Shown here: positions 4,999 to 31,477 of the stretch, one piece after another | Numbering within the stretch: the stretch's first letter is position 1 | Layout of the letters: every line of letters begins with the position of its first letter | Source: a virus | Direction: 5' to 3' (one strand) | Length of the DNA stretch: 64,000 nt | Virus record (IMG/VR): IMGVR_UViG_2509601026_000001 | Program-made: the position numbers and the translations under genes | The notes under the pieces: generated by a model | What the model was told of the DNA's origin: nothing | The model's input: the letters and a program-made list of their open reading frames with translations, nothing else | Database searches by the model: none

Positions 4999-5017
4999 CC
5001 TGCCCCGGAGGGGCAGG
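4999..5017. repeat. C-GGA-G hairpin element (outlying copy)
   Basis: cctgcccc-gga-ggggcagg, perfect 8-bp stem. Confidence 0.85.
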
Positions 5018-5023
5018 GATGAA

Positions 5024-5641
5024 CTAATCAATTAATGCAAGCTGGCCGGGGGCTGTGGGGATGATCGACGGATTTTGCCGTTCGGGCAGGGGCGGCAACC
5101 AAGCAAGACAGACCGGCCCCTTGGGAGTCATTCGCCAGTAGTTCATGCTTTGTTCAAGGTATTCACCACCGGAGAGATGGTGCATAAGAATTGGGCAAGA
5201 ATCCCCGGTTTCGTGAAAGCTATCTCTGGCGCATTTAGCGCACCAATGCCCCTGGAAAATTTCGCCTTCAGTACCATTGGAAGGGCAATAGTCTTCGTCT
5301 TTGGAGGGGATATAGGCAAGATAGTTGATAGCTCTGGTCCTGGCTGCCGCCTCTTGTTCTTCGGTCGGCTTGATTCTGATCTGCCTACCAATGACAGTAT
5401 TAATAATTATCTGATCGGCCTCTCCAATGTACTCACCTTTGAGGTAGACAGAATTACCGATCTTTTCATAGGGCAATCCATAATCTCGCTGGTTTAATTC
5501 TCGGCATTTCTCAGAGGCGCGATCGCCATAGTTGATGCCTTTGAGTCGAACAGGGCCAATCCGCCTAGGGTTTCCCCGTTTCGTTTGCTGCTTCAAATCA
5601 CGAATATGCCAAATGTTATTGACGGTGTAAGTTTCCCACAT
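5024..5641 (-). CDS. hypothetical protein, Cys-rich C-terminus
   Basis: 205 aa; PSNGTEGEIF...WCAKC...CPIL. Confidence 0.7.
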   Translation of the reverse strand: MWETYTVNNIWHIRDLKQQTKRGNPRRIGPVRLKGINYGDRASEKCRELNQRDYGLPYEKIGNSVYLKGEYIGEADQIIINTVIGRQIRIKPTEEQEAAARTRAINYLAYIPSKDEDYCPSNGTEGEIFQGHWCAKCARDSFHETGDSCPILMHHLSGGEYLEQSMNYWRMTPKGPVCLAWLPPLPERQNPSIIPTAPGQLALID

Positions 5642-5644
5642 GGC

Positions 5645-5986
5645 TTAAATAGAAGAAGGATTTTCGGTTGTAAAAACGCAAGTTGCATTGATCTTGTGAA
5701 TTAAGTCGGCAGCTTTTTCTAGATATTGCTGTCGATCTTGAGCATCCTTAGATGCGTAGGCAGCCATAGTTAGAGCGCTTAAATATCCAAACGCTGCTGT
5801 GTAGTCAGGTTGAATAACAGAAAAGCTGGATGAATCAGGTACGACCTGGCCAGTAATGGCGGCATTCTTTCTAACTGACTGAGCACCTTGGTAATAGGAA
5901 TAGCGATCGGCTTCATTCATGGTTATCACCGGGGGTAGAGTTGTCGGGGTGGTTAAGTCGATAAGACTCTTCAGCCTCATCGACAA
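5645..5986 (-). CDS. hypothetical protein
   Basis: co-oriented ORF in tight operon. Confidence 0.6.
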   Translation of the reverse strand: MSMRLKSLIDLTTPTTLPPVITMNEADRYSYYQGAQSVRKNAAITGQVVPDSSSFSVIQPDYTAAFGYLSALTMAAYASKDAQDRQQYLEKAADLIHKINATCVFTTENPSSI

Positions 5987-6203
5987 TTTGATTGAGCAGC
6001 TGTTGGCTCAGCTCGGGCATGATGTCCTGCATCTGAACGGCATAGGCATTGAGGGCCAGCCGACTTTGGTGGCCATGCTCTGCATGTGCGTCATAGCGAA
6101 GAACAAAATATCTGGCCCGTGGGTCCAGGGGAGTTCCATCAGCTTTGCTCAGCAGGTATTTGCCGTAGAGTCCAACAAGGCTTGGTGCTTCTTCAGGCGA
6201 CAT
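5913..6203 (-). CDS. hypothetical phage protein
   Basis: YFVLRYD motif; tight packing. Confidence 0.65.
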   Translation of the reverse strand: MSPEEAPSLVGLYGKYLLSKADGTPLDPRARYFVLRYDAHAEHGHQSRLALNAYAVQMQDIMPELSQQLLNQIVDEAEESYRLNHPDNSTPGDNHE

Positions 6204-6205
6204 AG

Positions 6206-6571
6206 CTAGTCCTGCGCGTTAAAGGATTCGTTCATGGAGTAGTTGAGTTCGGATGCAATCTGGTCAGTTTGCTGGGTCAGGTCACGGGTGACAAACCCAG
6301 GCATGTTGAAAGCGGCCAGTGACGCATAGCGGGCATCCCGGTGATTAGCTGCGCGGATCATCTCATCGAGCCAGGGAGTGCCACTGGCCGGAACCCGGAG
6401 ATGAATGGCCGCATACTCCTGGGCCGTTAGGCCAGGGGCGTAATCACGCTGACCGTCGGGAACAACAAAAGCAGGATCGTGAGGCAGAGATTTAGTCATG
6501 GGTCTAGTTCTATAGAGTTGGCAAAGGTAGGCAAGGTAGGCGCGAGGTAGCGTAGCAGGGCACAGAGCCAT
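6206..6571 (-). CDS. hypothetical phage protein
   Basis: GLTAQEYAAIHLRVPASGTPWLDEMI. Confidence 0.65.
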   Translation of the reverse strand: MALCPATLPRAYLAYLCQLYRTRPMTKSLPHDPAFVVPDGQRDYAPGLTAQEYAAIHLRVPASGTPWLDEMIRAANHRDARYASLAAFNMPGFVTRDLTQQTDQIASELNYSMNESFNAQD

Positions 6572-6574
6572 GGC

Positions 6575-7084
6575 TTACGCAGTCGATAGCCGGGGAGGGA
6601 GCACCCTGGCCCAGGCCAAAACATTGACAGGCCCAGGCCGCATCTGAAAGCCCCTCTGAGGGCAGTACGTTCCCTCGACTAGGGATTCATCATGATCGGG
6701 CCAATCAACCCATAGGATGAGCCTGTCGTTTGTCCTGGGCAGCTTCTCGCTGGGGTATTCCCAGATAGCTGCAATCTGGGCCACAGGGTTCCGGGGCATG
6801 GCCGCATGGATACTGGCCCAGGCCAAAACTTCAAAGCCCCTGTAGGGGCCAAAGGAATGGGCTGGGGCAACGGGCTTATAGATCTCCCACTGGTTAATTT
6901 CGTGGTCGTAGCTAGAAACGTAAAAGCCTTTGCTGCCGTCGTCCCATCTGAGCCAGATCAGAACGTCATGGGAGTACATCGCCTGCCCCCCATAAAATGC
7001 CCTCGGCAACGGGAGGCAGTCGCTCGACTGCCAGTAGCCAGCTATCCGGCCCAAATTGTTTCTTCGAGCTTCAGCAAGTTCCAT
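6575..7084 (-). CDS. hypothetical protein with two short W...LP...VLAWA units (DUF551-like)
   Basis: VLAWA occurs twice, each after a W-x-x-x-LP segment. Confidence 0.6.
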   Translation of the reverse strand: MELAEARRNNLGRIAGYWQSSDCLPLPRAFYGGQAMYSHDVLIWLRWDDGSKGFYVSSYDHEINQWEIYKPVAPAHSFGPYRGFEVLAWASIHAAMPRNPVAQIAAIWEYPSEKLPRTNDRLILWVDWPDHDESLVEGTYCPQRGFQMRPGPVNVLAWARVLPPRLSTA

Positions 7085-7546: not shown

Positions 7547-7563
7547 AAAGGGATTTCCGGGCC

Positions 7564-7592
7564 AAAAAAAACCGGGCTGAGTTGCCCGGTTT
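7564..7592 (-). terminator. intrinsic terminator after primase-helicase
   Basis: minus strand aaaccgggc-aactca-gcccggttt followed by T run. Confidence 0.7.
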
Positions 7593-7612: not shown

Positions 7613-10447
7613 TCAATCGCTTGTATCCCTTATGGATAAAGCGTTTTGGATAGATTCAAAGGCGAGGGGCAGAACTTCTTTGGGCAGTACATAGGACTTA
7701 GTTGTACGGCTATGCTTCCGGCCCAGCAGCGTACTGATGGACGGTTCTGGCGAGTCAGATTGGACGTACTTACGCCATACATCTTGACTCATCACGTACC
7801 GTACAGACACGTTTGTACGCCCCCCTTGTACGGCTTTGACGATCTGTTTGAACTGAGCACGGTCGAACAGGTGCCCGTTCGCTGCAACAATTTCGTCAAA
7901 GACCGTGCTGGGGATGGCCACAGAATCGGGCTGTGTCCTGGGGGTGATCATCAGATTCCAGGGGCCAGCCTTGCCCTGCCCGATTGCATGGGTAAGCCAG
8001 TCATCGAGCAGGTTGAGTGGGTCTAGATCAAGATGGCCCTCTACCTGGGTCGGTACTACCTCGTCAAAGAGATAGGCTTCCAGGGGGGCCATCTCTTCGG
8101 TTCCGAGGATATGCCTCATAACCTGTTCGGTGGCATAGGCGACGATCGCTATGCCCTTAACCGTGCGACGGTCTACGTTCATCTCTTGGATGACTTCTCG
8201 CCAGCGGGTGATACCGGCCAGGTCAAATGGAATGTTTACGAACTCGAAGAAACTGGCCGATAGGTCATCGACCAGGGGGGCCAGATCAGACAGGTCGATC
8301 AGCTGGTCAGGCCGATCCTCTAGCCTAAAGTTAAGGTTGAGGAATCTGGCGTTGGTTGCATCGTCATCAGTGCCCAGCTTGGGGTTAGTGCAGATAGAGA
8401 TAGACCGGGTAATCCGGCGATTCGTGTTCTTGGCGTTGCCTCCTTTGGCACCACCAAATGCCCTGCGGCTCAGGTCGTGAAAGTCAAACCTGAGCATCTT
8501 CTTCTCGGTCCGGTTGGAAACTGGGTCGTCAAAGAATAGGGGCAGGTTGGTGGCAATGTCCAGCAGGTCAAGCAGCTGGGCCTCTGTCTCCGGTGACTTT
8601 GGCTCATGGCCGAGCAACCGAGAGCAGATCATGGCCGCATAGCTTTTGCCGCTGCCGATGCCGCCGAACGGGTTGAGCAGCGGAAAGCTGCCGTGGACCG
8701 ATAGTATTTCGTCCCGGTGTGTGGCAGCTAGGGTGAAGCCGAGCATAAAGATCAGCTGCATGAAGTAGCGATCGCTCACGGCTGGGGCCAGGGCGTCTAG
8801 AAAGTGCTTGAGTGCACCGGGCTTTTGTGCCCTGAAGCCCAGGTAGTTATCAGGCTTAACGCCCTGATAGAACCAATTGGGTGAGCAAAATTCAGGAGCC
8901 GGAGCCGGGAAGATCCAGCCTCCGTCTACCTGCTTGCCGTACCGTTTGGCAATGTTCTTGGCAGGCTGCGTCGTGAAATCTACCCCGTCGGCTTGCTCAG
9001 CAATATGGGTGAGCAGGTCCACCCGTTCCCCGGTAAATGAGATGGGTGGTCTTGCGTCAGGGAACCGATGGATTGCAGCAATCAGATCTTTAATGGTCGC
9101 CATGTCAGCCGGAGTAAGCATACCTTCAAAGGGCTTGCCCTTTTCAAGATGTACCCTGACCCAGTAAGGACAGCCTAAATCCTGCCTGTCTTCTGGGCCA
9201 GGAATTGCCGCCCCAACTACCTCGATCCGAAAGTTGGAAATTTTGGTTTTTCGTCGGTAGAGACAATTTCCAATCACGATCGGAGCATTCCAATTGTCAG
9301 CAGTCCAGTCTGATTCTATAGACTTAGAATCAGATGCGACGTTTTTACCTGACGATTTGGCAGATTTTTTGGTAGCTGGGGCCAGCTCTTTTTTTGAGCC
9401 GTGGCCAGGGCTGGGAAATGTAAAGCCATACTGCTTTGCAATCCATACCACTGTCCCAAAATTACAGGGCCTAGCTGGTGGATTTTTTGCTAGGCTCTCA
9501 GCTCTTTTTTGAAGATGCCAATCTTCGGCTGGTTGAGCCAGGGGAGAACCCTGGGCAATATCAATGGCCTTCTGCACACCAAAGGTGTGGACCAGGCCAG
9601 CTAGCAGGCGTTGGCAATCCGGGTAGGTGCCACTACCCGGTTTACCCCTGGCGGGAAAGTAGGGGGCCATAAGCCTAGCCAGTTCTTCAGGACTTAGGTT
9701 TCCCTTGCCTTCAAACCGTTTTGCGGCTTCCCTTGCCCTGTTCTCTACAGCCCTGATTCGGTTGAACTCCTTTTTCTGAAAGGCTCTAAAGCCCTCAAAG
9801 AACGATTCGTCCAACCTTGAATAGGGATTGATGTAATAAGGAGTTCTACCCTCAGCACCGTAAAATACACGGTCTGAGTTTTTACAACTCGGGTCAGGGC
9901 CAGGGAATAGAGTATGGAGATATTGATAGGCAAGAGATATATTCTCAAAGCCTTCAATGGGCCGAGGCAGTACAAAGACAATCCTAAATTTGTTATAGTC
10001 AGGCTTGCTGCTGGCACTCTCTTGAATGAGTGCCGCATGTCTTCTTATAAAGGGGTGGGCGATCGCATTCTCTAGGGTTAACTCCCCAGAGTATTCGGTG
10101 AGATATTTGTCATTCTCATCTTTTATGCGCTTACCTTCGGAATCAAGGATGTATCGAGTGTTGTCAACATCAATGGCAAGACAATCAAGATGATTGCAAT
10201 ATTCCCTTGCCTTACGCTTAGCTCCGCCGTCGAGCAACCCTGGCATCCAGGTGTAGCCCGCCTGGTGGTGTTCGGCCAGGGTGAAAATGTCGGTATACTC
10301 GGTAGACCAATTTGCAGGCTCGGCCAGTTCCTCGGGGAACTTCAAGGGCTTGCCCTTGATGACTCTCGTGGAGGACCAGCGGAAGTGAACAGTCTGGGGT
10401 GGGTCCGGTGGCATCGGGACCGGAGAGGAAACCGTACCTTCACGCAT
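7613..10447 (-). CDS. primase-helicase (AEP primase, PriCT-like domain, C-terminal P-loop)
   Basis: LAIDVD, S..KFRIVF, DPSCKNSDRVFY in the N-terminal part; Walker A GGIGSGKS and Walker B LFFDD. Confidence 0.8.
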   Translation of the reverse strand: MREGTVSSPVPMPPDPPQTVHFRWSSTRVIKGKPLKFPEELAEPANWSTEYTDIFTLAEHHQAGYTWMPGLLDGGAKRKAREYCNHLDCLAIDVDNTRYILDSEGKRIKDENDKYLTEYSGELTLENAIAHPFIRRHAALIQESASSKPDYNKFRIVFVLPRPIEGFENISLAYQYLHTLFPGPDPSCKNSDRVFYGAEGRTPYYINPYSRLDESFFEGFRAFQKKEFNRIRAVENRAREAAKRFEGKGNLSPEELARLMAPYFPARGKPGSGTYPDCQRLLAGLVHTFGVQKAIDIAQGSPLAQPAEDWHLQKRAESLAKNPPARPCNFGTVVWIAKQYGFTFPSPGHGSKKELAPATKKSAKSSGKNVASDSKSIESDWTADNWNAPIVIGNCLYRRKTKISNFRIEVVGAAIPGPEDRQDLGCPYWVRVHLEKGKPFEGMLTPADMATIKDLIAAIHRFPDARPPISFTGERVDLLTHIAEQADGVDFTTQPAKNIAKRYGKQVDGGWIFPAPAPEFCSPNWFYQGVKPDNYLGFRAQKPGALKHFLDALAPAVSDRYFMQLIFMLGFTLAATHRDEILSVHGSFPLLNPFGGIGSGKSYAAMICSRLLGHEPKSPETEAQLLDLLDIATNLPLFFDDPVSNRTEKKMLRFDFHDLSRRAFGGAKGGNAKNTNRRITRSISICTNPKLGTDDDATNARFLNLNFRLEDRPDQLIDLSDLAPLVDDLSASFFEFVNIPFDLAGITRWREVIQEMNVDRRTVKGIAIVAYATEQVMRHILGTEEMAPLEAYLFDEVVPTQVEGHLDLDPLNLLDDWLTHAIGQGKAGPWNLMITPRTQPDSVAIPSTVFDEIVAANGHLFDRAQFKQIVKAVQGGRTNVSVRYVMSQDVWRKYVQSDSPEPSISTLLGRKHSRTTKSYVLPKEVLPLAFESIQNALSIRDTSD

Positions 10448-11430: not shown

Positions 11431-11636
11431 GTCAATAAAAATTTACGATTGTTAGCAATAACCGTCAGGTTTGAATAATAACCCACCTGTCTTTGCATCA
11501 ATCTGAAGTAAGCCAGATGGGACGCAAGAGACTTTAACCCGTCGACATACCCAATATCGATCGAAAGTAAATCACCGGAATAAAGTAAGTTAATATTTGT
11601 CATCGAGTAGTGTGAAAAATGCTCTCATAATGATGA

Positions 11637-11675
11637 CAAAAAAAGGGGATCTTGAATAAACAAGATCCCCTTTGT
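11637..11675 (-). terminator. intrinsic terminator
   Basis: aaaggggatcttg...caagatcccctttg stem with flanking A run (T run on minus strand). Confidence 0.65.
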
Positions 11676-11941: not shown

Positions 11942-11993
11942 AGTTTCACGAGTGATCTAGGGTTTACAAATTGAAAACTCTGGGTGGAAATAA

Positions 11994-12020
11994 CTACCCT
12001 GCCCCGGAGGGGCAAGGTAG
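11994..12020. repeat. C-GGA-G hairpin element (outlying copy)
   Basis: ctaccctgcccc-gga-ggggcaaggtag. Confidence 0.85.
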
Positions 12021-12047
12021 AAAATACTGTTGCTGTAAAAAGGAAAA

Positions 12048-18191: not shown

Positions 18192-18239
18192 AGTTTCAAC
18201 TTAGATAGATGGACTTGAAATCAACCTGGAGACTAGGCC

Positions 18240-19110: not shown

Positions 19111-19152
19111 TGATCGCAAAAAAAACCCCAAGCCCCGGAGGGGCAAGGGGTT
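19111..19152. repeat. C-GGA-G hairpin element with partial HIP1
   Basis: tgatcgc-aaaaaaaa-ccccaagcccc-gga-ggggcaagggg. Confidence 0.85.
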
Positions 19153-19180
19153 CGAGGTTTTAGGCAACGATGCGTGGATT

Positions 19181-19987: not shown

Positions 19988-20213
19988 TTGTCAAAGACCA
20001 AGTGTAGTTGCAGGACGGGCAATAGCCCAGGGATAGACCGGGCACCCTGGGCCTTGGGGCAGAGCCGTAATAACTGTCGGCATTGAGTCGGACAAACTTG
20101 GTCTGCGGGTGACGCTTTCCAATAATGTCCTCTTCGAGACTGCGTTGGTTCACCATGAGTTGGTAAACCGCAACGCTGTTGCAATTTTCTTGTGGGCAGG
20201 TAATTGGGTCCAT
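19977..20213 (-). CDS. small zinc-ribbon protein
   Basis: CPQENC...CPSC; start reassigned to MDPIT. Confidence 0.55.
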   Translation of the reverse strand: MDPITCPQENCNSVAVYQLMVNQRSLEEDIIGKRHPQTKFVRLNADSYYGSAPRPRVPGLSLGYCPSCNYTWSLTNDP

Positions 20214-20230
20214 GCCCACAATGATAATTG

Positions 20231-21157: not shown

Positions 21158-21163
21158 GATGGG

Positions 21164-21619: not shown

Positions 21620-21625
21620 AGTGTG

Positions 21626-21853
21626 TTAGGTAGAGTAGTCTTGAGAATAGGTTTTGAGAATTACAAGTTGAAGGCCATGCCAAGAATATTTGTCCTTAGT
21701 AGCAAAGAACTTTTCTATCTCGGCCTGGGCTTCTTCTTCAGAGTCAAACCCAGATGGAAAGGGCCTAACTCTGGTGTAATAGGGATTGTCTTCAGGGACT
21801 TCGATAAGTCGCCCTTCATCGGTCAGATGCCTGACCAAAAATTGAATCTTCAT
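21626..21853 (-). CDS. hypothetical protein
   Basis: ORF in operon. Confidence 0.65.
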   Translation of the reverse strand: MKIQFLVRHLTDEGRLIEVPEDNPYYTRVRPFPSGFDSEEEAQAEIEKFFATKDKYSWHGLQLVILKTYSQDYST

Positions 21854-21858
21854 GATTG

Positions 21859-22584
21859 CTATCGGTAACGTCGTTCTCGTGCAGCATCAGCAGCAAGATC
21901 AGATAGATAATAGAAAGCGTCGGTTAATTCGCCGCTTTCATCCATCCATCCTCTTTGCTTGAAGTCTTTAGCTTGCTGAGCCTCAGCAGCTTTTTGATAC
22001 TCTTCAGACTGAAGGTATTCTTGATAGGCTTTTTCGGCTTCAACCTCGATGGCATAGGCCAATGCCTCTTGCTCGGCCTGGGCCTTGAAGTAGGCTTTCC
22101 AGTCGAAAAACTGGTAGCTTGGGCATCGCCAAGCATCATAAAATTCGCCTTCGTTGTTCATGTCTGACTGAGGATGTTCAGCCTGCATGTTTGGCCAGGC
22201 TGCTTTGCAGAAAATGTCTGCATCTGGGCCAGTTTCGTAATCGTAGGTAGTCTCAACAACATAGTTTTTGCAGTTTTCGCAGGACCGTTGGCCAACGGAA
22301 CGAAATGCAAAAGCAACTTTGCCAAGCCTGACAAAGGTTGTCCAGCTCTGTGCTGATAGACCAATTCTATAATCTGAGAATATTGCAATAGCAAAAAGAC
22401 CAAAAATAATCTTGAACTCAAGTAGTTGAATGCCAAGATATTTCATGTCTTGCCAGACCACGGGACCGTGATCAATGGGCTTTGTATAGATGCCGTATTT
22501 TGTCACCCAGTCCATGTGTTCAGGCCTGGGCCATGGAGTGTAAAGGTTGTCAATTCGGGGAAGTTTTTGGAATAGTTTAATCAT
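21859..22584 (-). CDS. hypothetical protein
   Basis: 241 aa; CENC...C...C cluster. Confidence 0.65.
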   Translation of the reverse strand: MIKLFQKLPRIDNLYTPWPRPEHMDWVTKYGIYTKPIDHGPVVWQDMKYLGIQLLEFKIIFGLFAIAIFSDYRIGLSAQSWTTFVRLGKVAFAFRSVGQRSCENCKNYVVETTYDYETGPDADIFCKAAWPNMQAEHPQSDMNNEGEFYDAWRCPSYQFFDWKAYFKAQAEQEALAYAIEVEAEKAYQEYLQSEEYQKAAEAQQAKDFKQRGWMDESGELTDAFYYLSDLAADAARERRYR

Positions 22585-22934
22585 TGATAAACCAGAAAAA
22601 CAGTGGATTTGTCGGTAGTTGGCTGGGTAATCATTAGAACCTGATCTTGGCCAGCACTATTGGTCAAAGTGCAGTTGGCAAGTAGGTAAAACTCGCCTGG
22701 GTCAGGAATTGGAACATAGTCTTGTTCGGACACAAAACCCACCCCATTAATAATGGGGTAGCCTTTGGTGCCGTCTCGTACCGTATGAGGCGTGTAGTCG
22801 GCCTTGTAGCAAGTCACATGGCCGCCGTCATAGGTCCGGTCAAGGACCAGTTCGGGGGCAGGCGCAGGCGCAGGGGCCGACGCACAAGCCCCCAGAGAAA
22901 GGGCCAAGAATGCAGTGGGGACAGAACGTTTCAT
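22581..22934 (-). CDS. putative lipoprotein
   Basis: signal peptide with lipobox LSLGA-C. Confidence 0.6.
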   Translation of the reverse strand: MKRSVPTAFLALSLGACASAPAPAPAPELVLDRTYDGGHVTCYKADYTPHTVRDGTKGYPIINGVGFVSEQDYVPIPDPGEFYLLANCTLTNSAGQDQVLMITQPTTDKSTVFLVYQ

Positions 22935-22980
22935 GGTCTGAAAATGTATAGTTGTAACTATTCTACCCCCAGGGACAGGT

Positions 22981-23256
22981 TTATAACTCCGTCGGAATTT
23001 TGGCCTGGTCCCATTGCTCAGCTGCCTGAATCATCTGGAATTGGCAGGCAGTCTTAGCGAGTTGGAGCACATCGGCCTTGAGCTGGGCCGGGGCAGCCTC
23101 AGCCAAAAGCATGAGGGTTGCGCCCATGCCCCAGCGATCGACCATGCGCCGGAGAGCCGCAGCATCAAAAGCTTTCTCTTCAAGCTCTTGATCGACTTTG
23201 CGATCGTAGGCTTCATCGACGGATTCCCAGTAGTGGTCAGAATTAAGGAGAGCCAT
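22981..23256 (-). CDS. hypothetical protein
   Basis: follows variant hairpin at 23289-23313. Confidence 0.6.
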   Translation of the reverse strand: MALLNSDHYWESVDEAYDRKVDQELEEKAFDAAALRRMVDRWGMGATLMLLAEAAPAQLKADVLQLAKTACQFQMIQAAEQWDQAKIPTEL

Positions 23257-23338
23257 AGGTCAAGTAGGTTGGTGAAGGACAATAAGAAAAAGCCCCCGGC
23301 AGATGCCAGGGGCGAGAGGGAGAGGAGAGGAGGAGGGC

Positions 23339-24070
23339 TTAGGCCGCTACAGCCTCGGCGGGAACATCAATGGCCTCATAGGACTCAGGAGCCTCGGAGG
23401 TAGCAGGGGCATAGGTGGCCAGCAAGTCAGCGATCGCTGCCTCCATGTCGGCCTTTCTACCCTTGGCAGCCTTGGCCAGGGCCTCGGCCTGCTCGGTAGT
23501 GAGGCCAACGGTCGCCGGGGTGTACTCATTCATCTGGGCCTGAAGGTCGCCAGCTAGTTTGGTCAGCTGGTCGATCTCGGCCTGCTTTTCAGCAATGATG
23601 GCACTGTAGCTGTCTGCGCCAAGGATGAGCTTGTCGGCTTGAATCCAGATACGGTCAACCACTTCAGACCAGACCTGATAGGTGGTCTTGTTGTCCTCGC
23701 GGACGGAGACAATCCCAGCCTCACGATGATTGGTGCGAGCATCGTCCCGGAACGAACGGGCCAGTTCGAGATCGTCAAACTCGCCAAGGCAGCCGAGCTG
23801 CACAGAAGCACGAGTAGGCCCCTGGTAACGGCCAATGCTGCCGACCAAGGTAACGTGTTTGCCGTCGGTGAGATAAGGCACCAGGTTTCGGCTGGTCCAG
23901 TGGTGGCATTCCATCAGGAAGGGCTTAGGCTCTTTAGAGCGCTCGAAGGGGTCAAAGACCAGTACGGTAAAGCTGATTTTGACACGGCCATTCTCAGCGG
24001 TTTGAAGCAAAAGAGCATCGCCAACGAGTTGAGCACCGGACACGTTAGAAGTGATAGTTCCAATAGCCAT
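23339..24070 (-). CDS. SSB-like OB-fold protein with C-terminal coiled coil
   Basis: VKISFTV...MECHHW.SRNLVPYLTDGKHVTLVGSI resembles the SSB OB fold. Confidence 0.55.
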   Translation of the reverse strand: MAIGTITSNVSGAQLVGDALLLQTAENGRVKISFTVLVFDPFERSKEPKPFLMECHHWTSRNLVPYLTDGKHVTLVGSIGRYQGPTRASVQLGCLGEFDDLELARSFRDDARTNHREAGIVSVREDNKTTYQVWSEVVDRIWIQADKLILGADSYSAIIAEKQAEIDQLTKLAGDLQAQMNEYTPATVGLTTEQAEALAKAAKGRKADMEAAIADLLATYAPATSEAPESYEAIDVPAEAVAA

Positions 24071-24178
24071 AGTGATTAGCCTCTAGGTAAATGAGTAAGT
24101 TGACAGTTGGTTAAAAACCCCCTGGTCCCCGGAGGGGCCAGAGGGATACAATTGAGGTTGGCAGGAGTAAAATCTGGC

Positions 24179-24439
24179 CTAGGTAGATGCACCTTCAGCC
24201 GGGGTTTCAACAATCTCAAGATCAAAGTCGTGAGAGTAGTTGAAGCCTCGGTTTTCTAAGTTTTGAGCAAAGACGGCGCAGAAAAAGGCATCTTCAAAAT
24301 ATGAAGATGTCCAGCTACCAGAGCCAGCTGCCGTTTCGTGGTAAACCACGTAGGGTAGATCTGCGGTGGGTTCGGTATAGGCCTGGTAATCTTCTTCGGC
24401 AGTTAATAGATAGTCGGCAATTTGGCAAGAAGCAGGCAT
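24179..24439 (-). CDS. hypothetical protein
   Basis: single ORF between two hairpin elements. Confidence 0.6.
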   Translation of the reverse strand: MPASCQIADYLLTAEEDYQAYTEPTADLPYVVYHETAAGSGSWTSSYFEDAFFCAVFAQNLENRGFNYSHDFDLEIVETPAEGAST

Positions 24440-24557
24440 GGGTCATACTCCTTCAGAGAAAGTGGACTCAGCAGTTTTTTTGCTGGACTTACTTAGGTCC
24501 AGGTACTAAAAAACCCCCTGGTCCCCGGAGGGGCCAGAGGGTCTGTCGATGCGATCG

Positions 24558-25010
24558 CTAAGCAACCTGCTGGGCAGATTGCTCGTAGTGTTGTTCAAGG
24601 GTGGTGGCCCACCATTCTTCAACGGCTTGCACTACCTCTTGGTCGTACCCCTCGGGGAGGGTGTAGCCGAGGTGGCGCAGCAGGGACGGGATGTACTCAG
24701 GCATGATGCGACGGTTGCGCTCAGCCGGGTCATAGCCCAGCCGCAGGTCACGGACAGAGAACCGGACGATGCCATTCTTGTCGGCGCTAGCCTGGGCGGT
24801 GATGATCACTTGTCGGCCTACGGTCAGGTAGGGAACTAGACCTACCGGATAGTTCCAATAGCTGAAATTGAAATACTCGGTTTTGGCCTCGCCTGCCTGG
24901 TTGATGCGATCGCAAGCGACTCGCAGGACCAGCAGCGGAATGATAGAACCACGGACGACACGAGAGGTTTGAGTAGGTTCAACTACAACGTTTCCAACGA
25001 AAGTATCCAT
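24558..25010 (-). CDS. SSB-like OB-fold protein
   Basis: TFVGNVVVEP...LRVACDR...KTEYFNFSYWN...LVPYLTVGRQVII. Confidence 0.65.
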   Translation of the reverse strand: MDTFVGNVVVEPTQTSRVVRGSIIPLLVLRVACDRINQAGEAKTEYFNFSYWNYPVGLVPYLTVGRQVIITAQASADKNGIVRFSVRDLRLGYDPAERNRRIMPEYIPSLLRHLGYTLPEGYDQEVVQAVEEWWATTLEQHYEQSAQQVA

Positions 25011-25094
25011 AGGAATGCCTCAGAAGGTTCGATCGCCAAAAAACCCCCCTGTCCCCGGAGGGGCAGAGGGGCAAGGTTTGCGGTGGAGAGATGG

Positions 25095-25676
25095 TTACTT
25101 AGGTTGCCAAATTCCTATCATCCAGCGATCGTTAGCAACAGCTATTGATCGGTGAAGATGTTTGCAATCAAACTGAATAAGTTCGCCACCAGTCAGTATG
25201 AGTTGATCATAAAGAGCTGGCGGTGAATCTGAGTTTCGTTTGACAGCAATCTGGAATGTAGCAGAGCCTAAGTTGAGGATATGAGCTGTTTTGTGGGCGT
25301 AACTAGCGTCACGATGCCAGTTAATTCCTGTGCCTTTAGCGACAAGAGCGCATGAAGCACTAGGAACTAGCTGCTTAATGAAAGGCCAGAGTCGTTCATC
25401 ATGGATAGCTGGCCGGTATTGGACAGGTGAACCGTTGCGTCCACTTCTTAGGTCAGGTTCTTGATGAAGCCAATAGCGCAGTCTGCCTGGGGCGTAGTTG
25501 GAAATGTCTTCTTTAAGATGATCAGATTGGGTTTCAAGATGATGAATGATTTCAAGAATCTTTGGAGTTGGGAATGTGTAAAGTATTTCAGCGATCATGG
25601 AATATTCCATATCAATAAAGATTGCAAGCAATTCCGTAGAGAGGGTCTGTCTTCCATTTTTGAAGGAGACGATCAA
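25095..25676 (-). CDS. 2OG-Fe(II) dioxygenase, AlkB-like
   Basis: WHRD (HxD), LNLGSATF, distal HLHRS and DRW. Confidence 0.75.
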   Translation of the reverse strand: MIVSFKNGRQTLSTELLAIFIDMEYSMIAEILYTFPTPKILEIIHHLETQSDHLKEDISNYAPGRLRYWLHQEPDLRSGRNGSPVQYRPAIHDERLWPFIKQLVPSASCALVAKGTGINWHRDASYAHKTAHILNLGSATFQIAVKRNSDSPPALYDQLILTGGELIQFDCKHLHRSIAVANDRWMIGIWQPK

Positions 25677-25857
25677 AGTTTTCGGAGCTGACTATACGAC
25701 AGTCAACACCACCGGATTTGAAATGCCAAAAGAGAGAATAACGGGGTGGCACATCAAACCCGATGCAGGCAAATACATTTGAGTCGTCAATACTTCGCAT
25801 GGATAACAACCCTCTCGACCGGAGGGAGAAAAGAGGGTAAAACTGTGCGATCGAAAG

Positions 25858-26067
25858 TTAGTCTTCTTCTTCTTCAATAGGATTGTAGTCTTCGCAGTCA
25901 GAAGTTTGAGCATCACAAAGAACTCGGTAAAGAACTAAGTCCATAGGCCTTGTTTTGGGAGCACCAAAGATGCCCCAGTCTTTTGCGCATTGAGCAACTT
26001 CGTCAAAGGTGATGCCACCACCTGTTGAATCAGATTCCCAGCGGCTCTTAAACTCTTCTTTGGTCAT
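25858..26067 (-). CDS. hypothetical protein
   Basis: GITFDEVAQCAKDWG. Confidence 0.6.
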   Translation of the reverse strand: MTKEEFKSRWESDSTGGGITFDEVAQCAKDWGIFGAPKTRPMDLVLYRVLCDAQTSDCEDYNPIEEEED

Positions 26068-26069
26068 AG

Positions 26070-26297
26070 TTAGCCTACAAGTTTTGGTTGTTCGATGTAT
26101 TCTTTCTCGCCAGCGGGAAAGTATTGAGAGCTAAATTGTGCCTGAGAATAGACCATTGAATAATCATTAGGCCAATTTTGCTCAGCCCATTTCTGGGCAA
26201 AGTCTACATCATCGGTATTCAATCGAATCCAATGATTTCGCCATTCGCTACGCTGGCGAAAAGTAATGTAAGTTCCGGGTAAAACGGGGCTAGACAT
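26070..26297 (-). CDS. hypothetical protein
   Basis: YITFRQ...YSMVY. Confidence 0.6.
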   Translation of the reverse strand: MSSPVLPGTYITFRQRSEWRNHWIRLNTDDVDFAQKWAEQNWPNDYSMVYSQAQFSSQYFPAGEKEYIEQPKLVG

Positions 26298-26368
26298 CAG
26301 TGAATCTTTCCTTTTGGGGTAAGTTGGATGGGTTGAATTTCGCCGCTATAACCAATTATCCCATAGAG

Positions 26369-26755
26369 TTAATGTGTAGCCAAGTCGGCAAACTTGACGG
26401 AGTGAAAAGGGTATTTCTCGCCTGGGCGATCGTCAAAGTTCCAGCATTCACAGTAGGTATCAGCGTGGGCCGATAGGTAGCCCTCAATGAATGGCTGCTT
26501 GAAAACGTGCTCACTTATAGAAATGGCTGGGCCAGTCAAAAAATGTTGATAGCCTAACCGCCAACCAATACACTCAGAGGTTCCTTGAGTGTAAGGATTT
26601 CTGGTCTGTTCGCAGTCAAGGTAGATGTGAGTGCAAGCATGATGCCATGCCTCGCCCCAGGTGGCTTCTGCACCATAGGCACACAGAAGCTCGCCACGTT
26701 CTGAATGCCACTTGTAAGAGCCATCAGAGAGTTTTTCGATAGAGATTTCTAGCAT
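26369..26755 (-). CDS. hypothetical protein
   Basis: ORF after hairpin at 26800. Confidence 0.6.
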   Translation of the reverse strand: MLEISIEKLSDGSYKWHSERGELLCAYGAEATWGEAWHHACTHIYLDCEQTRNPYTQGTSECIGWRLGYQHFLTGPAISISEHVFKQPFIEGYLSAHADTYCECWNFDDRPGEKYPFHSVKFADLATH

Positions 26756-26818
26756 GAGTAATAAAGGTAAACATGGTTATCAGAAAATCTCCTGCCCCCG
26801 GAGGGGCAGGGAGGAGTA

Positions 26819-27235
26819 TTAACGAGCAGCAGCTAGTTCACGCTCAAGCTGGTCCCAGTTGACAGGGCCTAGCTCGAAATCAGATTCATCGGCAAAAGCT
26901 GGGGGTAGCTCGGCGGGGATATACTGCTTGCGCTTTGTGTAGTTATCCCAGGCTATGTAGGCACCGAGGCCAAAGGCTCCGACCAAGCAGACACCCAGGG
27001 TGATCGGATTGGTGACAACTTCCATGATGGTTGCTCCAGTCTCAGCTAAGAGCGAACCAGCCTCAGCCGTAAGCGAAGTGCCTTCAGCAATATCGGCAGT
27101 CGTAGAAACAGCATCGACGGTAGTAGAAACAGCGTCGGCAGCAGTAGCAGTAGCCTCCATTGCATCGGCGGCGATCGCAGTAGCTTCAGCGGCCTCAGCA
27201 GCAGTCATTACGTCAGCATAGTGAGATGCAATCAT
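26819..27235 (-). CDS. Ala/Thr-rich membrane protein
   Basis: start reassigned to attgccATG at 27235; one TM helix (ITLGVCLVGAFGLGAYIAW). Confidence 0.6.
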   Translation of the reverse strand: MIASHYADVMTAAEAAEATAIAADAMEATATAADAVSTTVDAVSTTADIAEGTSLTAEAGSLLAETGATIMEVVTNPITLGVCLVGAFGLGAYIAWDNYTKRKQYIPAELPPAFADESDFELGPVNWDQLERELAAAR

Positions 27236-27331
27236 GGCAATAAATAGGTAGAAGAACAGGCACAAAAAACCCCCTCCCTACGGAGTAGGGAAGGGGCGTT
27301 TAGCATTGAATTGGTGATATGGCCCATCTTA

Positions 27332-27631
27332 TCAGATAGGCATTTCACCTAGCCATTGATACACCTGGGCATCACAAAAGCCGCAGGGTATCCAGATGGG
27401 AGGATCAAGAGGTTTGATAAGACCGTCTTCGAGCAAAGCCCGGTCGAGGGCCTGGTTTTCGGACCAGTTCTTGATTAGAACGCAGCCACTTGGAAGTAGC
27501 TGCTTGGTATTGACCGTGGCGACGGCATAAGGCTCAAAGCCTAACAGAAGATGGATGCAAATATTTCGAGGATTTGCATACCACAGTGGTTTGATAGCCA
27601 ATTGTTTGCCGTGCCAAAGGATAGTTGTCAT
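27332..27631 (-). CDS. hypothetical protein, DUF4313-like
   Basis: EPYAVATVN...IKNWSEN...GFC. Confidence 0.5.
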   Translation of the reverse strand: MTTILWHGKQLAIKPLWYANPRNICIHLLLGFEPYAVATVNTKQLLPSGCVLIKNWSENQALDRALLEDGLIKPLDPPIWIPCGFCDAQVYQWLGEMPI

Positions 27632-27724
27632 AAGCGTTCACAGATAATAGGTCAGTCTTAAACCGGGAAAAAGAGTATCCAATCCCCGGCTTTTCGCTAG
27701 GGATTGGGTGAGTAGTGGTCTATG

Positions 27725-28246
27725 TCAATTTGAGGGAGTTGCGAGATTGGATAGAGCTTCGTATAGCTCGGCCTTGGACATGCGGCTATAGCGGGGTAGC
27801 TCGATGCGCTTTGCGATCGCCCGCAGTTGGTTGCGGGACATTTGAGCAGTGACCATAGGAACAGGCTCAGCCTCGGCCTCGGCCCGGTCAGGTTCGGCCT
27901 CTACCACGGCGGTTGAAGCAACCTCGATGGTGGTAACAGAAGCCTCAGCAGGGGCCTCGGTAGCAGGCATGAGCAGAGCAATAGGACTAGCAGCAGGCAT
28001 GAGCTGGGCCGGGGGCTTGGCGACGGCAGGCAGTGCAGAGACAACCTGCAAGTCAATCCAGAGCTTGACCAGGATAAAGACGGTCGCCACGATGGCGTAA
28101 ACCACGGCGAAGGAGAACCGGGCCAGCCATGCAATCAACTGGGCGGCGGCGATCGCCTTCGGAGAGGCCCAGCGATATGCAGCGTAGAGAGTCGAAGCGA
28201 TTTGAAGGGTGTTGTCGGTAGAGTTGATCAGGGTAGCGTAAGTCAT
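27725..28246 (-). CDS. membrane protein with C-terminal Rho-N (HeH-like) domain
   Basis: TM segment, then MSRNQLRAIAKRIELPRYSRMSKAELYEAL; start reassigned to MTYAT. Confidence 0.65.
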   Translation of the reverse strand: MTYATLINSTDNTLQIASTLYAAYRWASPKAIAAAQLIAWLARFSFAVVYAIVATVFILVKLWIDLQVVSALPAVAKPPAQLMPAASPIALLMPATEAPAEASVTTIEVASTAVVEAEPDRAEAEAEPVPMVTAQMSRNQLRAIAKRIELPRYSRMSKAELYEALSNLATPSN

Positions 28247-28383
28247 TTGAAGTTTCCTTTGCCCGTGTAGAGAGTGGGCACTAATGGTGAATAGATGCCG
28301 TGAAGAGATTGGCATCTTGATCCACAGAATAACCCCCAAGCCTCGGAGAGGCAAGGGGGTCAATTTTGGATTTTAGAAATAGC

Positions 28384-28830
28384 CTATGGATAGTTGAGCA
28401 GGTTGTTTGCAGTAGCGTAATACCACGAACTGGCAACAACCTCACCATGGCAATTGAACGGATAGTCAGCTTCGTCAAGAATACCGTGGACGCAGAAATT
28501 TTCCTTGTAGCAAAAACAGCCTAATTGGCTGTCTGTGTCCAGCGATCGAAGCTCATCAAGCACAGCTTGACGAGTCGGAAAGTGAAAGTTTGCAACGGTA
28601 GAAGCGTTGAGTTCAGCCTTCAGGTATTCGGCGGCAGCTTGGGGCTGCATCCGGTCCTTCAAAACAAGTTTTATGTAGGCCCTGAACAGCTTCACGCATT
28701 GTTTGCGGTCGGCAACAGTTCTGCCAACCGGGAATGGATTGGCCAGGGCTGATTGGGCCTTGCCCTTGCCGCCGCGCCCAATGTAATGGGCCAGTGGAGT
28801 TGAGCCAATGGTAGTAATAATCATGGGCAT
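28384..28830 (-). CDS. DUF4326 domain protein
   Basis: YIGRG...ALANPF...LGCFC...HGEV. Confidence 0.75.
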   Translation of the reverse strand: MPMIITTIGSTPLAHYIGRGGKGKAQSALANPFPVGRTVADRKQCVKLFRAYIKLVLKDRMQPQAAAEYLKAELNASTVANFHFPTRQAVLDELRSLDTDSQLGCFCYKENFCVHGILDEADYPFNCHGEVVASSWYYATANNLLNYP

Positions 28831-28900
28831 TAGAGATGAATTGCGATCGCAGATAGAACCCTCATCCCCTCGGAGAGGGGAGAGGGTAGTTAGTCAAAGT

Positions 28901-29095
28901 TTAGAACCAGATGGTGCTAAATTCTCCTGCGTAATAAGTGCCAAGATAACGACGGCGGGGACCAGTCAAGATGTTGATAAGATCGTCTTTGTCAGGCTCA
29001 AGCCAGATGTCTCGATAGCCACGCTGAAGCAGTTGATCGATCACCTGGGAGATTGAGCCTTGTATGTCAAAGTCATGGGTAAAGTCAGGTTTCAT
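28901..29095 (-). CDS. hypothetical protein
   Basis: single ORF between hairpins. Confidence 0.65.
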   Translation of the reverse strand: MKPDFTHDFDIQGSISQVIDQLLQRGYRDIWLEPDKDDLINILTGPRRRYLGTYYAGEFSTIWF

Positions 29096-29166
29096 AGGTG
29101 ATAGAAATGAGATGAGCGATCGCTAAAAAACCCCCTGGACCCCGGAGGGGCCAGAGGGTAAATGGA

Positions 29167-29595
29167 TTAAGCGGCGTTGCGAATGATGGCGGACAGTTGA
29201 GATCTGATGTCTTTTTCAGGGGTGATATGAATAACGCCCCAGAGGTCCAGGCCAAGCCGTTTATAGGCAGTCGCAAGCTGAGCTTGCTTCCTGGCCTTGG
29301 CGGCTAAAGCTCGGTCGTTAAGAGTAATGTCAAGGCCGATTACATGGCCTAGATAGAGGATCACTGCATCTAGCCCAAAGACTAGATCCAAATATTCTGT
29401 TGGCGGAATTTCTAGCTCACCAAAGATTTGATTGAGGTGAAATTCAGCCGCTTCAATGCGGGCAGAAGGAATGCAGTCGGCAGCGACATTTTGTAAGATG
29501 GCCAGGTCAAAGTAGATTGGCTTAGCTCTAAGAGCCTTGAGTTCAGACATAGTGTTTTGCTCTGCGGTCAGAGCAGCAAGAGAGCCGTAGGTCAT
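29167..29595 (-). CDS. hypothetical protein
   Basis: single ORF between hairpins. Confidence 0.65.
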   Translation of the reverse strand: MTYGSLAALTAEQNTMSELKALRAKPIYFDLAILQNVAADCIPSARIEAAEFHLNQIFGELEIPPTEYLDLVFGLDAVILYLGHVIGLDITLNDRALAAKARKQAQLATAYKRLGLDLWGVIHITPEKDIRSQLSAIIRNAA

Positions 29596-29682
29596 AGTAG
29601 GTTATGGCGATTGCTTGAAATGAGCGATCGCCAAAAGAACCCCCCTAGCCCCGGAGGGGTAGGAGGGTCATTGGTTTAGGGA

Positions 29683-30183
29683 TTAGACAATTTGCCCACG
29701 GATACCAGCGGCCTTAGCGGCCTGGACCCGACCGGCAGCAATAGAAACGCTAGCCTTCAGGTCAAACTGGGCAGGAGCAACTGAGATAGTTGCAGAAAGT
29801 TCGTGGTCAAAGATAACTTGCAAAAGACGAACAGCCGCACCCTCTACATCAGTAGTAGGGCAGACCACAACAATCTCGTCGCCGGAATACCAGCGAAACA
29901 AGGAGTTTGAGCCACGAGAAGAACGAAAGCAGGCAAGGGCAGAACGAATGCGATCGTCTACAGCTTCGTAGCCCAACTCGTCGTTGAGCTGGTGGATGTG
30001 GTCAAGGTCAAAAAAGATGACGGAGTAGCGACCGTGACGCAACCTGGCCCAGAGTAATTCAAGCCTCTGGCGAGTGCCGACCCCATAGGCCGGGCAGGTG
30101 GTCAGGACATCTACTACCTTACGGTGGTAGATGTAGAAGGAGATAAAGCCAGCAATATAAGCAATGATGGCAACAAGAATCAT
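29683..30183 (-). CDS. membrane-anchored GGDEF-domain protein
   Basis: N-terminal TM helix; IFFDLDHIHQLNDELGYEAVD; RWYSGDEIVV. Confidence 0.8.
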   Translation of the reverse strand: MILVAIIAYIAGFISFYIYHRKVVDVLTTCPAYGVGTRQRLELLWARLRHGRYSVIFFDLDHIHQLNDELGYEAVDDRIRSALACFRSSRGSNSLFRWYSGDEIVVVCPTTDVEGAAVRLLQVIFDHELSATISVAPAQFDLKASVSIAAGRVQAAKAAGIRGQIV

Positions 30184-30264
30184 GGCAATTAAGTAGGCAG
30201 TGCGATCGCCAAAAAGCCCCCACCCCATAGGGGCAGGGGCAGACTCAAGGAGAGGGATTAGGCG

Positions 30265-30585
30265 TTAGTTGTCCAATGCACACTTGGACTGTTCAGCCCA
30301 GTTCTTAGCTTTGGCAATGCATGTTTCGTAGTCAGTGGCCTTGAGGTAGCTGTGGTCGATGGTCGTATCAGCGCCAGGGTCAACGGGGTTGACAATAGGC
30401 TGGTCAACCGCATTGTTGTCCAATGCACACTTGGACTGTTCAGCCCAGGTCTTGGCATTGGCGATGCAGGTTTCGTAGGGAGTAGCAGCAACAACGGGAT
30501 GGACGGGAGCCGCAACAGCCACGACAGCAGCAACGATAGGAGCGGCAGCAGTGATGATTTGAACAGCGATGGAGATGGATTTCAT
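30265..30585 (-). CDS. secreted protein with duplicated Cys motif
   Basis: signal peptide; YETCIA.AK.WAEQSKCALDN occurs twice. Confidence 0.7.
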   Translation of the reverse strand: MKSISIAVQIITAAAPIVAAVVAVAAPVHPVVAATPYETCIANAKTWAEQSKCALDNNAVDQPIVNPVDPGADTTIDHSYLKATDYETCIAKAKNWAEQSKCALDN

Positions 30586-30701
30586 AGTTGATAAGTCCTT
30601 GTAGGTTAGGTGTGTTATTCGCAACAAGTGAAGGTTGCGATCGCCAAAAGAACCCCCTGGTCCCCGGAGGGGCCAGAGGGTAAAGGTCTAGTCGGAGTCA
30701 G

Positions 30702-30920
30702 TTAGTTCGAGTAGGCGGCGCAAACCTCGGCAGCCAGCGCTAATAGCTCGGCTACCTCGGGGTCAGCCTCATGGCCAGGGTTGATGACCGTGGCTTCTCC
30801 GCAGAGAACAACCGCTTCGCTATAACCAGGCAGGGCAACGATGCCCTTGCCGGAAGCATGAGAGGCAGCGGCGCACAGGAAGATAAACAGAGGGACAATA
30901 AAGGCGATAATGAGTTTCAT
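30702..30920 (-). CDS. small secreted protein
   Basis: signal peptide MKLIIAFIVPLFIFLCAAASHA. Confidence 0.65.
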   Translation of the reverse strand: MKLIIAFIVPLFIFLCAAASHASGKGIVALPGYSEAVVLCGEATVINPGHEADPEVAELLALAAEVCAAYSN

Positions 30921-30994
30921 GGCAATTGCAAGTAGAGATTGCGATCGCCAAAAGAACCCTCACCGTCCCCGGAGGGGCGGGAGGGTCATAGGGC

Positions 30995-31084
30995 TTAGTC
31001 GGTAGTGAATCGGTAAACGATGCCGAGCATGGCACCGCCGACAGTCAGGGAATAGAGAACAGCCAGTAGGCACTGAGTAATCAT
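30995..31084 (-). CDS. 29-aa hydrophobic peptide (not in ORF track)
   Basis: MITQCLLAVLYSLTVGGAMLGIVYRFTTD; attgccATG start; exactly fills the space between two hairpins. Confidence 0.6.
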   Translation of the reverse strand: MITQCLLAVLYSLTVGGAMLGIVYRFTTD

Positions 31085-31160
31085 GGCAATGAGAGATATA
31101 GATTGCGATCGCCAAAAGAACCCTCATCCCCTCGGAGAGGGGAGAGGGTAAGGCGAGTCG

Positions 31161-31334
31161 CTAGAAGGCGATAAGGTCATAGTCGGATGGAACAGGCCGA
31201 ACGATAGGCTGGCGCATAGAGACTTGAACCTCGGCACCATCGGCCATAGCGGCCAGTGCAACCTGACGGTTGGTGGTGCAGTAGGTTTCAAAGCAACCAG
31301 TCGATTCGGCGTGGATAACGTGATAGTCGAACAT
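31161..31334 (-). CDS. hypothetical protein, first gene of early array
   Basis: start reassigned to MFDYHVIH, ~30 bp after hairpin at 31382. Confidence 0.6.
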   Translation of the reverse strand: MFDYHVIHAESTGCFETYCTTNRQVALAAMADGAEVQVSMRQPIVRPVPSDYDLIAF

Positions 31335-31477
31335 GATAGATAGAGGATGACAACACCCAGTGAAGAACCCTCGTCGTCCCCGGAGGGGCGAGAGGGATAG
31401 GGATAGTGCGATCGGCAGTGGGCCAGCGTAGCCAGCCATGCGATCGTATAGCGTCCCCAGAGGGGAATCGCTAGGGG

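Follow-up and report, generated by a model that had tools for sequence, protein, structure and literature searches.

Serial hairpins with a near-invariant CUCCG apex and terminator-like anatomy at the gene junctions of an S-EIV1-like cyanobacterial prophage

The early promoters of coliphage N4 are template-strand hairpins of 5–7 bp that present a 3-nt loop containing a sheared G:A pair, with the central G at −11 and four As before +1; they are activated by gyrase and single-stranded DNA-binding protein (SSB) and are used by a virion-packaged T7-like polymerase, whose mini-vRNAP form is available in the PDB as entries 2PO4 and 3C3L (PMC4496689). A second type of repeated early element, the PeSL (promoter-early stem-loop) of T4-type phages, is an intergenic stem-loop terminator or attenuator with G-T pairs that recurs among orphan early genes, reaches as far as the following gene's start codon, carries a strong sigma-70-type promoter together with a Shine-Dalgarno (SD) site and is conserved within a genome, and its arrangement has been likened to integron cassettes (PMC2839356, PMC4122927). 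Here we analyse 18 related hairpins in a 64,000-nt stretch of viral DNA (IMG/VR record IMGVR_UViG_2509601026_000001, hereafter the window), which corresponds to C2:695000-758999 of a 6.89-Mb two-contig genome and carries an S-EIV1-like cyanobacterial prophage. Coordinates are window positions unless prefixed by C2 or an L-number. An initial annotation of this DNA had drawn attention to the plus-strand loop C-GGA-G of these hairpins and had considered them as single-stranded DNA or cruciform signals, or as terminators read through by a dedicated antitermination system. Judged from the sequence, the 18 elements are probably RNA hairpins in the sense transcript of the early/replication arm of the prophage, with the anatomy of terminators or attenuators, and each stands at the head of a repeated junction module.

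PeSL is the closest analogue among the described systems, since it shares with the prophage family a G/C-tract stem-loop with G.U pairs, a location among small orphan early genes and a reach to the start codon. Unlike PeSL, the prophage module has no consistent −35/−10 or SD, includes the HIP1 octamer (GCGATCGC) and displays an invariant loop. The hairpins also resemble canonical intrinsic terminators, as the initial annotation had recognized, in having a G+C-rich stem of 8–13 bp in the RNA sense, a loop of 3–4 nt, an adjoining U tract and a co-oriented position after the stop codon. They differ from canonical terminators in that 18 related copies follow one another in a single direction, the loop is fixed even where no tetraloop register can form, and six of the U tracts are weak.

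The family is sharply delimited. The plus strand reads C-GGA-G at all 17 positions listed by the initial annotation, and ATA at 30227, confirming its count of 17 hairpins and one loop variant. A covariance model built from the 18 hairpins (R1), an approach the annotation had suggested, scores the members at 31–54 bits, compared with 13.7 bits for the next best match in the window, and on the whole 6.89-Mb genome it recovers only the same 18, all on the minus strand within C2:699981-726400. Across 52 further species of the genus, R1 gave only isolated weak matches and no clusters; the lack of matches elsewhere in the host genome and of clusters in these species marks the family as specific to this phage. 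CGGAG-apex hairpins with four or more closing pairs have a background frequency elsewhere of ~1.2e-5 per strand-base, which predicts 0.32 on a single strand of 26.4 kb, and the simple count is 16 (Poisson P ~4e-22). The single orientation claimed earlier holds for 18 of 18 copies, which are all intergenic and co-oriented with the genes, lying 7–38 nt past a stop codon and ahead of the next likely start. Fifteen of them cluster at the head of the arm (24.1–31.4 kb), between small genes that matched no family. A scan of the whole window against Rfam (E up to 1) produced two chance-level matches only, no tRNAs were found, and an exact-pattern hairpin scan returned one chance match among viral contigs and 24 single chance matches among genome contigs, in GC-rich genomes. 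We note a 19th hairpin with a CCCC-UCC-GGGG apex at C2:765355-765405 (at 765379), ~6.4 kb past the end of the window, where minus-sense genes at the prophage's far end leave an intergenic gap. Its 5' arm bulges by one base, no U tract follows, and it resembles the type-B hairpins of a related prophage described below.

The stems, of 12–13 bp with a bulge and hence longer than the 5–7 bp of N4 as previously remarked, covary: 25 cells of the alignment are changed on both sides, and none of 500 shuffles reaches the observed score, in agreement with the earlier claim. Conservation is bipartite, with the apex (four G-C pairs and the loop) and the stem base (ACCCUC/GGGGGU) with the U tract being kept, and the three or four mid-stem pairs being the most variable, yet complementary. 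The loop columns are among the least variable, so that the previous description of a fixed loop stands as far as near-invariance is concerned, but the loop is not the sole fixed part. RNA-sense folding energies lie between −19 and −26 kcal/mol in 16 of the 18 copies.

The distribution of wobble pairs distinguishes the two strands. When folds of the 18 copies are constrained to the triloop, the RNA sense forms 203 Watson-Crick and 18 G.U pairs, whereas the template strand forms 208 Watson-Crick and 0 G.T pairs, and thus every non-canonical pair is an A.C mismatch in the plus-strand DNA hairpin. With G.U pairs allowed, RNA-sense folds gain up to 5.9 kcal/mol in stability. Some of the wobbles are shared by descent, while several are independent (h12006, h19137, h27282, h30227 and h30971; Table 1). 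Folding with DNA parameters gives about −9 to −12 kcal/mol for both strands, the minus strand being more stable in four of the five copies tested, which alone is not decisive. The pairing is maintained on the transcript-sense (RNA) strand and not on the template. This offers a worked example of how wobble-pair asymmetry separates an RNA hairpin from a template-strand DNA hairpin.

At the apex, CUCCG is fixed in 17 of the 18 copies, 13 of which read CUCCGG. Unpaired bases fall on the RNA 3' arm (the plus-strand 5' arm) in 11 of 18 copies, which bears out the reported bias towards one arm. In eight copies with a 3'-arm bulge, a triloop plus bulge and a c(UCCG)g tetraloop plus one 1×1 mismatch are only 0.2–0.7 kcal/mol apart, and this near-equal tetraloop register explains the apparently extra base on one arm. 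The c(UCCG)g register is open to 9 of the 18 copies, cleanly in h26800 and at near-equal energy in the eight, and is impossible in the others. UNCG-type loops are common in terminators. The earlier argument that an ordinary terminator gives no reason to keep the loop is weakened, since CUCCGG can form a loop of this type, but the triloop-only copies nevertheless keep UCC. Terminator-like hairpins of the host have diverse loops with no preference for UCC, and 11 of the 15 strong UCC-triloop hairpins of the genome lie in the prophage.

Downstream of the stem, every copy has a U-rich stretch in the RNA sense; the first six bases are ~79% U, and U5–8 or UUCUUUU follows directly in 12 of the 18 copies. 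The module runs from hairpin and U tract to the HIP1 octamer, a leader of ~15–20 nt and, in five copies, a shared start context. HIP1 occurs at a fixed offset past the U tract in 8 of 18 copies, repeat families (D4–D6) of up to 57 nt reach into the leader and the next start codon, and the start context AUUGCCAUGAUU is common to five downstream genes that are not paralogues. The initial annotation had placed the next start codon often only 15–45 nt away. Several of these starts, taken from the longest open reading frames, fall inside hairpins, and the likely true starts lie 20–45 nt, in some cases 70–130 nt, beyond the U tract. A simple terminator scan of 18000–33000 found 45 sites where 14 ± 3.5 were expected, the strongest (those with most G-C pairs) being on the minus strand. 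The arm also holds ordinary terminators, as indicated by a hairpin outside the family that has a terminator at the orthologous junction of a relative (Table 1). More strong terminator-like hairpins outside the family are seen on the minus strand of the same arm at 7559–7581, 11620–11650 and 17880–17910, and the plus-strand virion arm has few comparable sites.

Equivalent junction hairpins are present in related phages. Relatives were found by anchoring on conserved neighbour genes, and three were informative: a prophage on contig C62 of genome G036 (L113), a metagenomic phage (L121/L123) and L130. The G036 prophage, from another species of the genus, encodes a portal and a terminase that are 61% and 73% identical to those of the window. 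Its early arm carries seven almost identical type-A hairpins, which have the outer stem ACCCC...GGGGU and the flank UUCUUUUGGC in common with the family and carry the classic RNA tetraloop c(UUCG)g as their cap. In addition, it has four type-B hairpins, in which a C(UCC)G triloop sits on an unrelated stem with no U tract, and a leader hairpin with the same loop. Each junction of L121/L123 combines three hairpins: type A, whose stem is constant and whose loops vary; one that presents HIP1 at its apex; and type B, which has a C(YCU)G triloop and a U-rich tract after it. In these related phages, the hairpin families precede a shared box, GUAGUUGUUC, before the SD and AUG (L113 900–3300; L121 100–4500). 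With two or three homogeneous hairpin families in each related phage, this is a lineage-wide modular junction system. The strand asymmetry recurs, with wobble pairs of the type-A hairpins numbering 4 in the RNA sense versus 0 on the template in G036 and 12 versus 1 in L121, and the type-A hairpins of both are 6–8 kcal/mol more stable in the RNA sense.

L130 represents the replication arm of the closest relative, with 15 syntenic genes. Its junctions bear diverse hairpin and U-tract terminators with sequences unlike those of the family, and the junction preceding its SSB gene has an unambiguous c(UCCG)g hairpin whose CCCUCCGGGG apex is that of h19137, on different stems. Sequence comparison thus indicates that terminator positions are conserved in the lineage and their sequences turn over, each phage having amplified its own hairpin type. 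No comparable hairpin family was found in S-EIV1 itself. The sequences of L121 and L123 are identical, leaving no gain or loss of genes at modules to compare, and a further relative, L108, ends 150 nt past the large gene, short of the small-gene region. Protein-anchored locus searches of viral and genome contigs with the 1164-aa and 466-aa proteins gave nothing.

In the sense RNA, the hairpin with its U-rich tract would act as an intrinsic terminator or attenuator, and would also cap and stabilize the 3' end of the upstream cistron. We suggest that amplification has spread the module between the small orphan genes at the arm's head, as with PeSL cassettes in T4-type phages, and that such modules may mediate cassette shuffling. 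The CUCCG apex would provide a compact RNA cap, in which the C(UCC)G triloop may switch to a c(UCCG)g tetraloop of UNCG type, and would be kept probably by selection for fast and stable folding together with copying between modules. If so, S-EIV1-like temperate cyanophages, which have been little studied, organize their early genes with an individual, homogeneous hairpin set per phage, and the idea of portable junction cassettes would extend from T4-type phages to cyanobacterial prophages, without an evident sigma-70-type promoter.

Several observations weigh against this interpretation. U tracts are poor in six copies, and the homologous type-A hairpins of relatives often have no good U tract, so that termination may not be the main or only role of the hairpins. 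The loop is more constant than the mid-stem, for which thermodynamics alone provides no explanation; C(UCC)G is kept in four copies with CCUC/GAGG or CUAC/GUAG apices as well as in the type-B hairpins of G036, in all of which the tetraloop register is impossible. The sequencing runs that contain the region are DNA only, none being RNA, and no 3' end was seen. Finally, ~17 serial terminators with no evident internal promoters would silence the distal genes unless they are read through.

Read-through is needed if ~17 hairpins are arranged in series and the genes have no promoters of their own. Good promoter-like sites are found only upstream of the arm, one of them within a 78-bp inverted repeat (Table 1), and an extended −10 (TGTAAAAT) follows h19137 ahead of the SSB gene, leaving ~15 family hairpins in the path of the polymerase between the upstream promoter-like sites and this one. 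Promoter-like sites occur at chance frequency (12 found, 11.8 expected), there is no conserved TANNNT between hairpin and start, and UUGGCG or UUGGCA, considered as a −35-like element, shows no consistent spacing to any −10. For the earlier proposal of terminators read through by antitermination, the terminator anatomy and the need for read-through speak in its favour, but no read-through device, antitermination factor or signal was found. Indeed, scans of ~50 arm proteins against Pfam and PHROG detected no antiterminator, RNA-binding or nuclease family beyond one Rho_N-like motif. The simplest view is that termination is partial and gives graded expression, although read-through could also be regulated. 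To our knowledge, cyanobacteria lack Rho, and serial strong terminators with a fixed loop could lead to a new mechanism of transcription control in these bacteria.

A different role for the apex would be recognition, in that a dedicated phage or host factor could read C(UCC)G on the nascent RNA and either suppress termination, thereby timing early expression, or cut and process the polycistronic RNA at the junctions. Loop and closing pair are the same in 17 of 18 copies, with two-sided changes in the neighbouring stem pairs, and C(UCC)G reappears on unrelated stems without U tracts in G036 (the four type-B hairpins and the leader hairpin) and on the U-less hairpin at C2:765379. The pyrimidine triloops C(YCU)G of type B in L121 occupy the same position in the module, terminator-like hairpins of the host show no preference for C(UCC)G, and serial terminators call for a mechanism of read-through. 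The protein scans, however, gave no candidate factor, and with type-A loops being variable in L121 and UUCG in G036, loop identity of the homologous element is not conserved across the lineage. On account of the triloop-only copies that keep UCC, we give such a factor a low but not negligible probability. Slightly more doubtful still is the fuller proposition that S-EIV1-like temperate cyanophages have an undescribed regulator for which the C(UCC)G apex serves as recognition element, and which would bind the terminator hairpins directly and so govern the passage of polymerase or the processing of RNA through ~17 junctions; if true, this loop-reading regulator would constitute a hairpin-targeted antitermination or punctuation system in cyanobacteria.

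Both DNA-level readings fare worse than the RNA hairpins favoured here. If the elements were promoters of N4 type, the C-GGA-G hairpin of the plus (template) strand would be recognized by a single-subunit phage RNA polymerase, with the A run as a ruler and the mRNA start downstream. The likeness to N4 P1–P3 is evident in the plus-strand A run followed by a stem with a three-base C-GGA-G loop closed by C.G, in the presence of a phage SSB gene and in the placement of the hairpins 20–45 nt upstream of many start codons, and a 1164-aa orphan gene adjoins the arm. Unlike in N4, it is the opposite strand that is paired: all 18 mismatches fall on the template strand, and the 18 U.G pairs in the sense against 0 G.T on the template are echoed in two related phages. 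The bulged stems of 12–13 bp, twice as long as those of N4, would place an N4-like +1 inside the stem; the A run ranges from 4 to 8 nt and is often broken; N4 has 3 such promoters against the 18 sites here; and relatives do not retain the loop type, their template-strand loops being AGG or AGA (L121) and CGAA (G036), not GNA. A vRNAP or other N4/T7-like polymerase was not detected, the genome having no match to PF00940, for which control genomes were equally silent, and no open reading frame of >1200 aa in or near the prophage. For the 1164-aa orphan, an exhaustive sequence search of 1.8 billion representatives gave a single homologue, an atlas search gave nothing above noise, and four homologues taken from loci went with it into a profile. 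Neither the protein nor this five-member profile matches a solved polymerase in the PDB, the single sequence having no match there and the profile matching coiled coils only, and the five-member alignment has neither Lys nor His at any invariant position; in the structure model disorder and helix predominate, and its mean pLDDT of 38.7 is too low for a fold search. The protein is thus unlikely to be a polymerase. With mismatches on the template, long stems and a loop type that relatives do not keep, we reject the N4-type or cruciform template-strand reading as extremely improbable. Very improbable, too, are sites acting as single-stranded DNA in recombination or priming, whether attC-like, targets of HUH nucleases or primosome assembly sites, that would mobilize the small genes as cassettes. 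Each of the small, promoterless, co-oriented genes has an imperfect palindrome at its boundary, in which the unpaired bases fall on one arm, and each phage has its own homogeneous repeat, as sedentary integrons do. Against this, the elements measure ~30 nt, unlike the 55–140 nt of attC, and have no RYYYAAC/GTTRRRY core sites, while the 793-kb replicon C2 nowhere shows a match to the tyrosine recombinases (PF00589), and hence no recombinase of IntI type. Y1/HUH transposases are met only >17 kb beyond the window, where they belong to IS-like copies; a conserved U tract would have no role; and, to fit the wobble pattern, activity would have to reside in the minus strand.

Table 1. Positions of the family hairpins, a terminator-like hairpin outside the family and the presumed promoter of the arm
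Feature	Position	Strand	R1 score (bits)	Remarks
h31382	31357..31401	-	39.2	First of arm, upstream of first small gene; weak U tract (UUCUUCAC)
h31134	31109..31153	-	46.9	CCUC-UCC-GAGG apex, then UUCUUUU and HIP1
h30971	30946..30990	-	42.5	UUCUUUU and HIP1 after stem
h30666	30641..30685	-	53.6	UUCUUUU and HIP1 after stem
h30227	30204..30246	-	31.5	Sole loop variant (UAU in RNA); two G.U pairs; U5 and HIP1
h29653	29628..29672	-	52	UUCUUUU and HIP1 after stem
h29144	29120..29163	-	52.3	U6 and HIP1 after stem
h28872	28847..28891	-	42.7	Stem as in h31134; weak U tract; HIP1; repeat family D4
h28345	28320..28364	-	39.7	CCUC/GAGG apex; UU.UU internal loop; weak U tract
h27282	27257..27301	-	38.7	CUAC-UCC-GUAG apex; two U.G pairs; U6
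h26800	26775..26819	-	35.7	Clean c(UCCG)g register: −20.3 (tetraloop) vs −15.3 kcal/mol (triloop)
h25821	25798..25842	-	31.8	Degenerate copy; weak U tract
h25057	25033..25076	-	47.4	U6 and CGATCG after stem
h24527	24502..24546	-	48.4	U6 after stem
h24131	24106..24150	-	46.1	U5 after stem
h19137	19112..19156	-	41.1	U8; just upstream of SSB gene
h12006	11981..12025	-	37.5	After exonuclease gene; weak U tract
h5007	4982..5026	-	33.2	Upstream of clamp gene cluster; weak U tract
Terminator-like hairpin outside the family	23292..23313	-		AUCU loop, U5, strong; orthologous L130 junction also has a terminator
Presumed operon promoter (putative)	31848..31925	-		78-bp inverted-repeat arm with TGGGCA-16-TATGAT pointing into the hairpin-bearing arm

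The genome that harbours the prophage contains ~8,000 copies of the HIP1 octamer, a richness that identifies the host as a cyanobacterium. The G+C content of the window is 50.7%, compared with 56–58% for the genome, and the low G+C runs on to ~C2:769000, the prophage forming an element of roughly 75 kb on the 793-kb replicon C2, in which a tyrosine recombinase gene was not detected. A plus-strand arm, from 36.6 kb, encodes the large terminase, portal and major head protein, and a minus-strand arm runs from 36.4 kb down to the start of the window with genes for an FHA protein, the orphan 1164-aa protein and many small orphan proteins, as well as SSB, an exonuclease, a primase-like protein, a sliding clamp and a DNA methyltransferase. 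The two-arm layout recurs in Synechococcus phage S-EIV1, whose portal shows 35% identity to the one encoded here; a megablast of 12 kb against phage records gave no match. The small genes between the hairpins include those for a GGDEF-domain protein (29683–30228), a protein with the Rho_N-like motif (27725–28363) and a DUF4326 protein (28384–28830), all on the minus strand, and the remaining hairpin-flanked small genes have no family match. The gene at 30265–30627, which encodes 120 aa, holds a 72-nt direct repeat (30268–30339 and 30415–30486; 89% identical), and its protein thus has an internal duplication.

The exact-pattern scan of metagenomes matched only an AT-rich, mitochondrion-like contig in which the same 11-mer lies within GC clusters, and this candidate was set aside as unrelated. 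This high-coverage bioreactor contig (ENA UOXB01000163; 72.7 kb, 30% G+C; L077, L085, L087 and L105; also L079, L080 and L098) has dispersed GC-cluster hairpins with a CCCCTCCGGGG core on both strands, and the elements, which are unrelated to the prophage, are reminiscent of the GC clusters of fungal mitochondria.

Between the repeat-borne promoter and the first family hairpin, the leader (31478–31672, minus strand) holds ~seven 28-nt units, each with a CCCC-loop-GGGG and a second G run, and the G4 tracts on its RNA-sense strand could form G-quadruplexes. After the stop codon of the large gene, four related phages show a promoter-like site, one or two hairpins and a terminator within ~100–130 nt (window ~32010–32155, minus strand; L108 11620–11760; L113 ~3800–4000; L121 ~5040–5180). 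This arrangement, which has no match in Rfam, has the look of a small-RNA unit conserved where the early arm begins. The FHA gene and the large orphan gene are bracketed by a perfect 78-bp inverted repeat (31848–31925 and 36424–36501), and the same bracketing repeat is present in relatives, with a length of 74 nt in G036 (L113 ~3589–3662 and ~9178–9251) and 68 nt in L121 (4796–4863 and 9731–9798). In L127, a metagenome contig ~95% identical to the G036 prophage, the bracketed segment is reversed with a breakpoint in the repeat (5295–5368), and thus the FHA/large-orphan segment exists in nature both ways round and is probably invertible.

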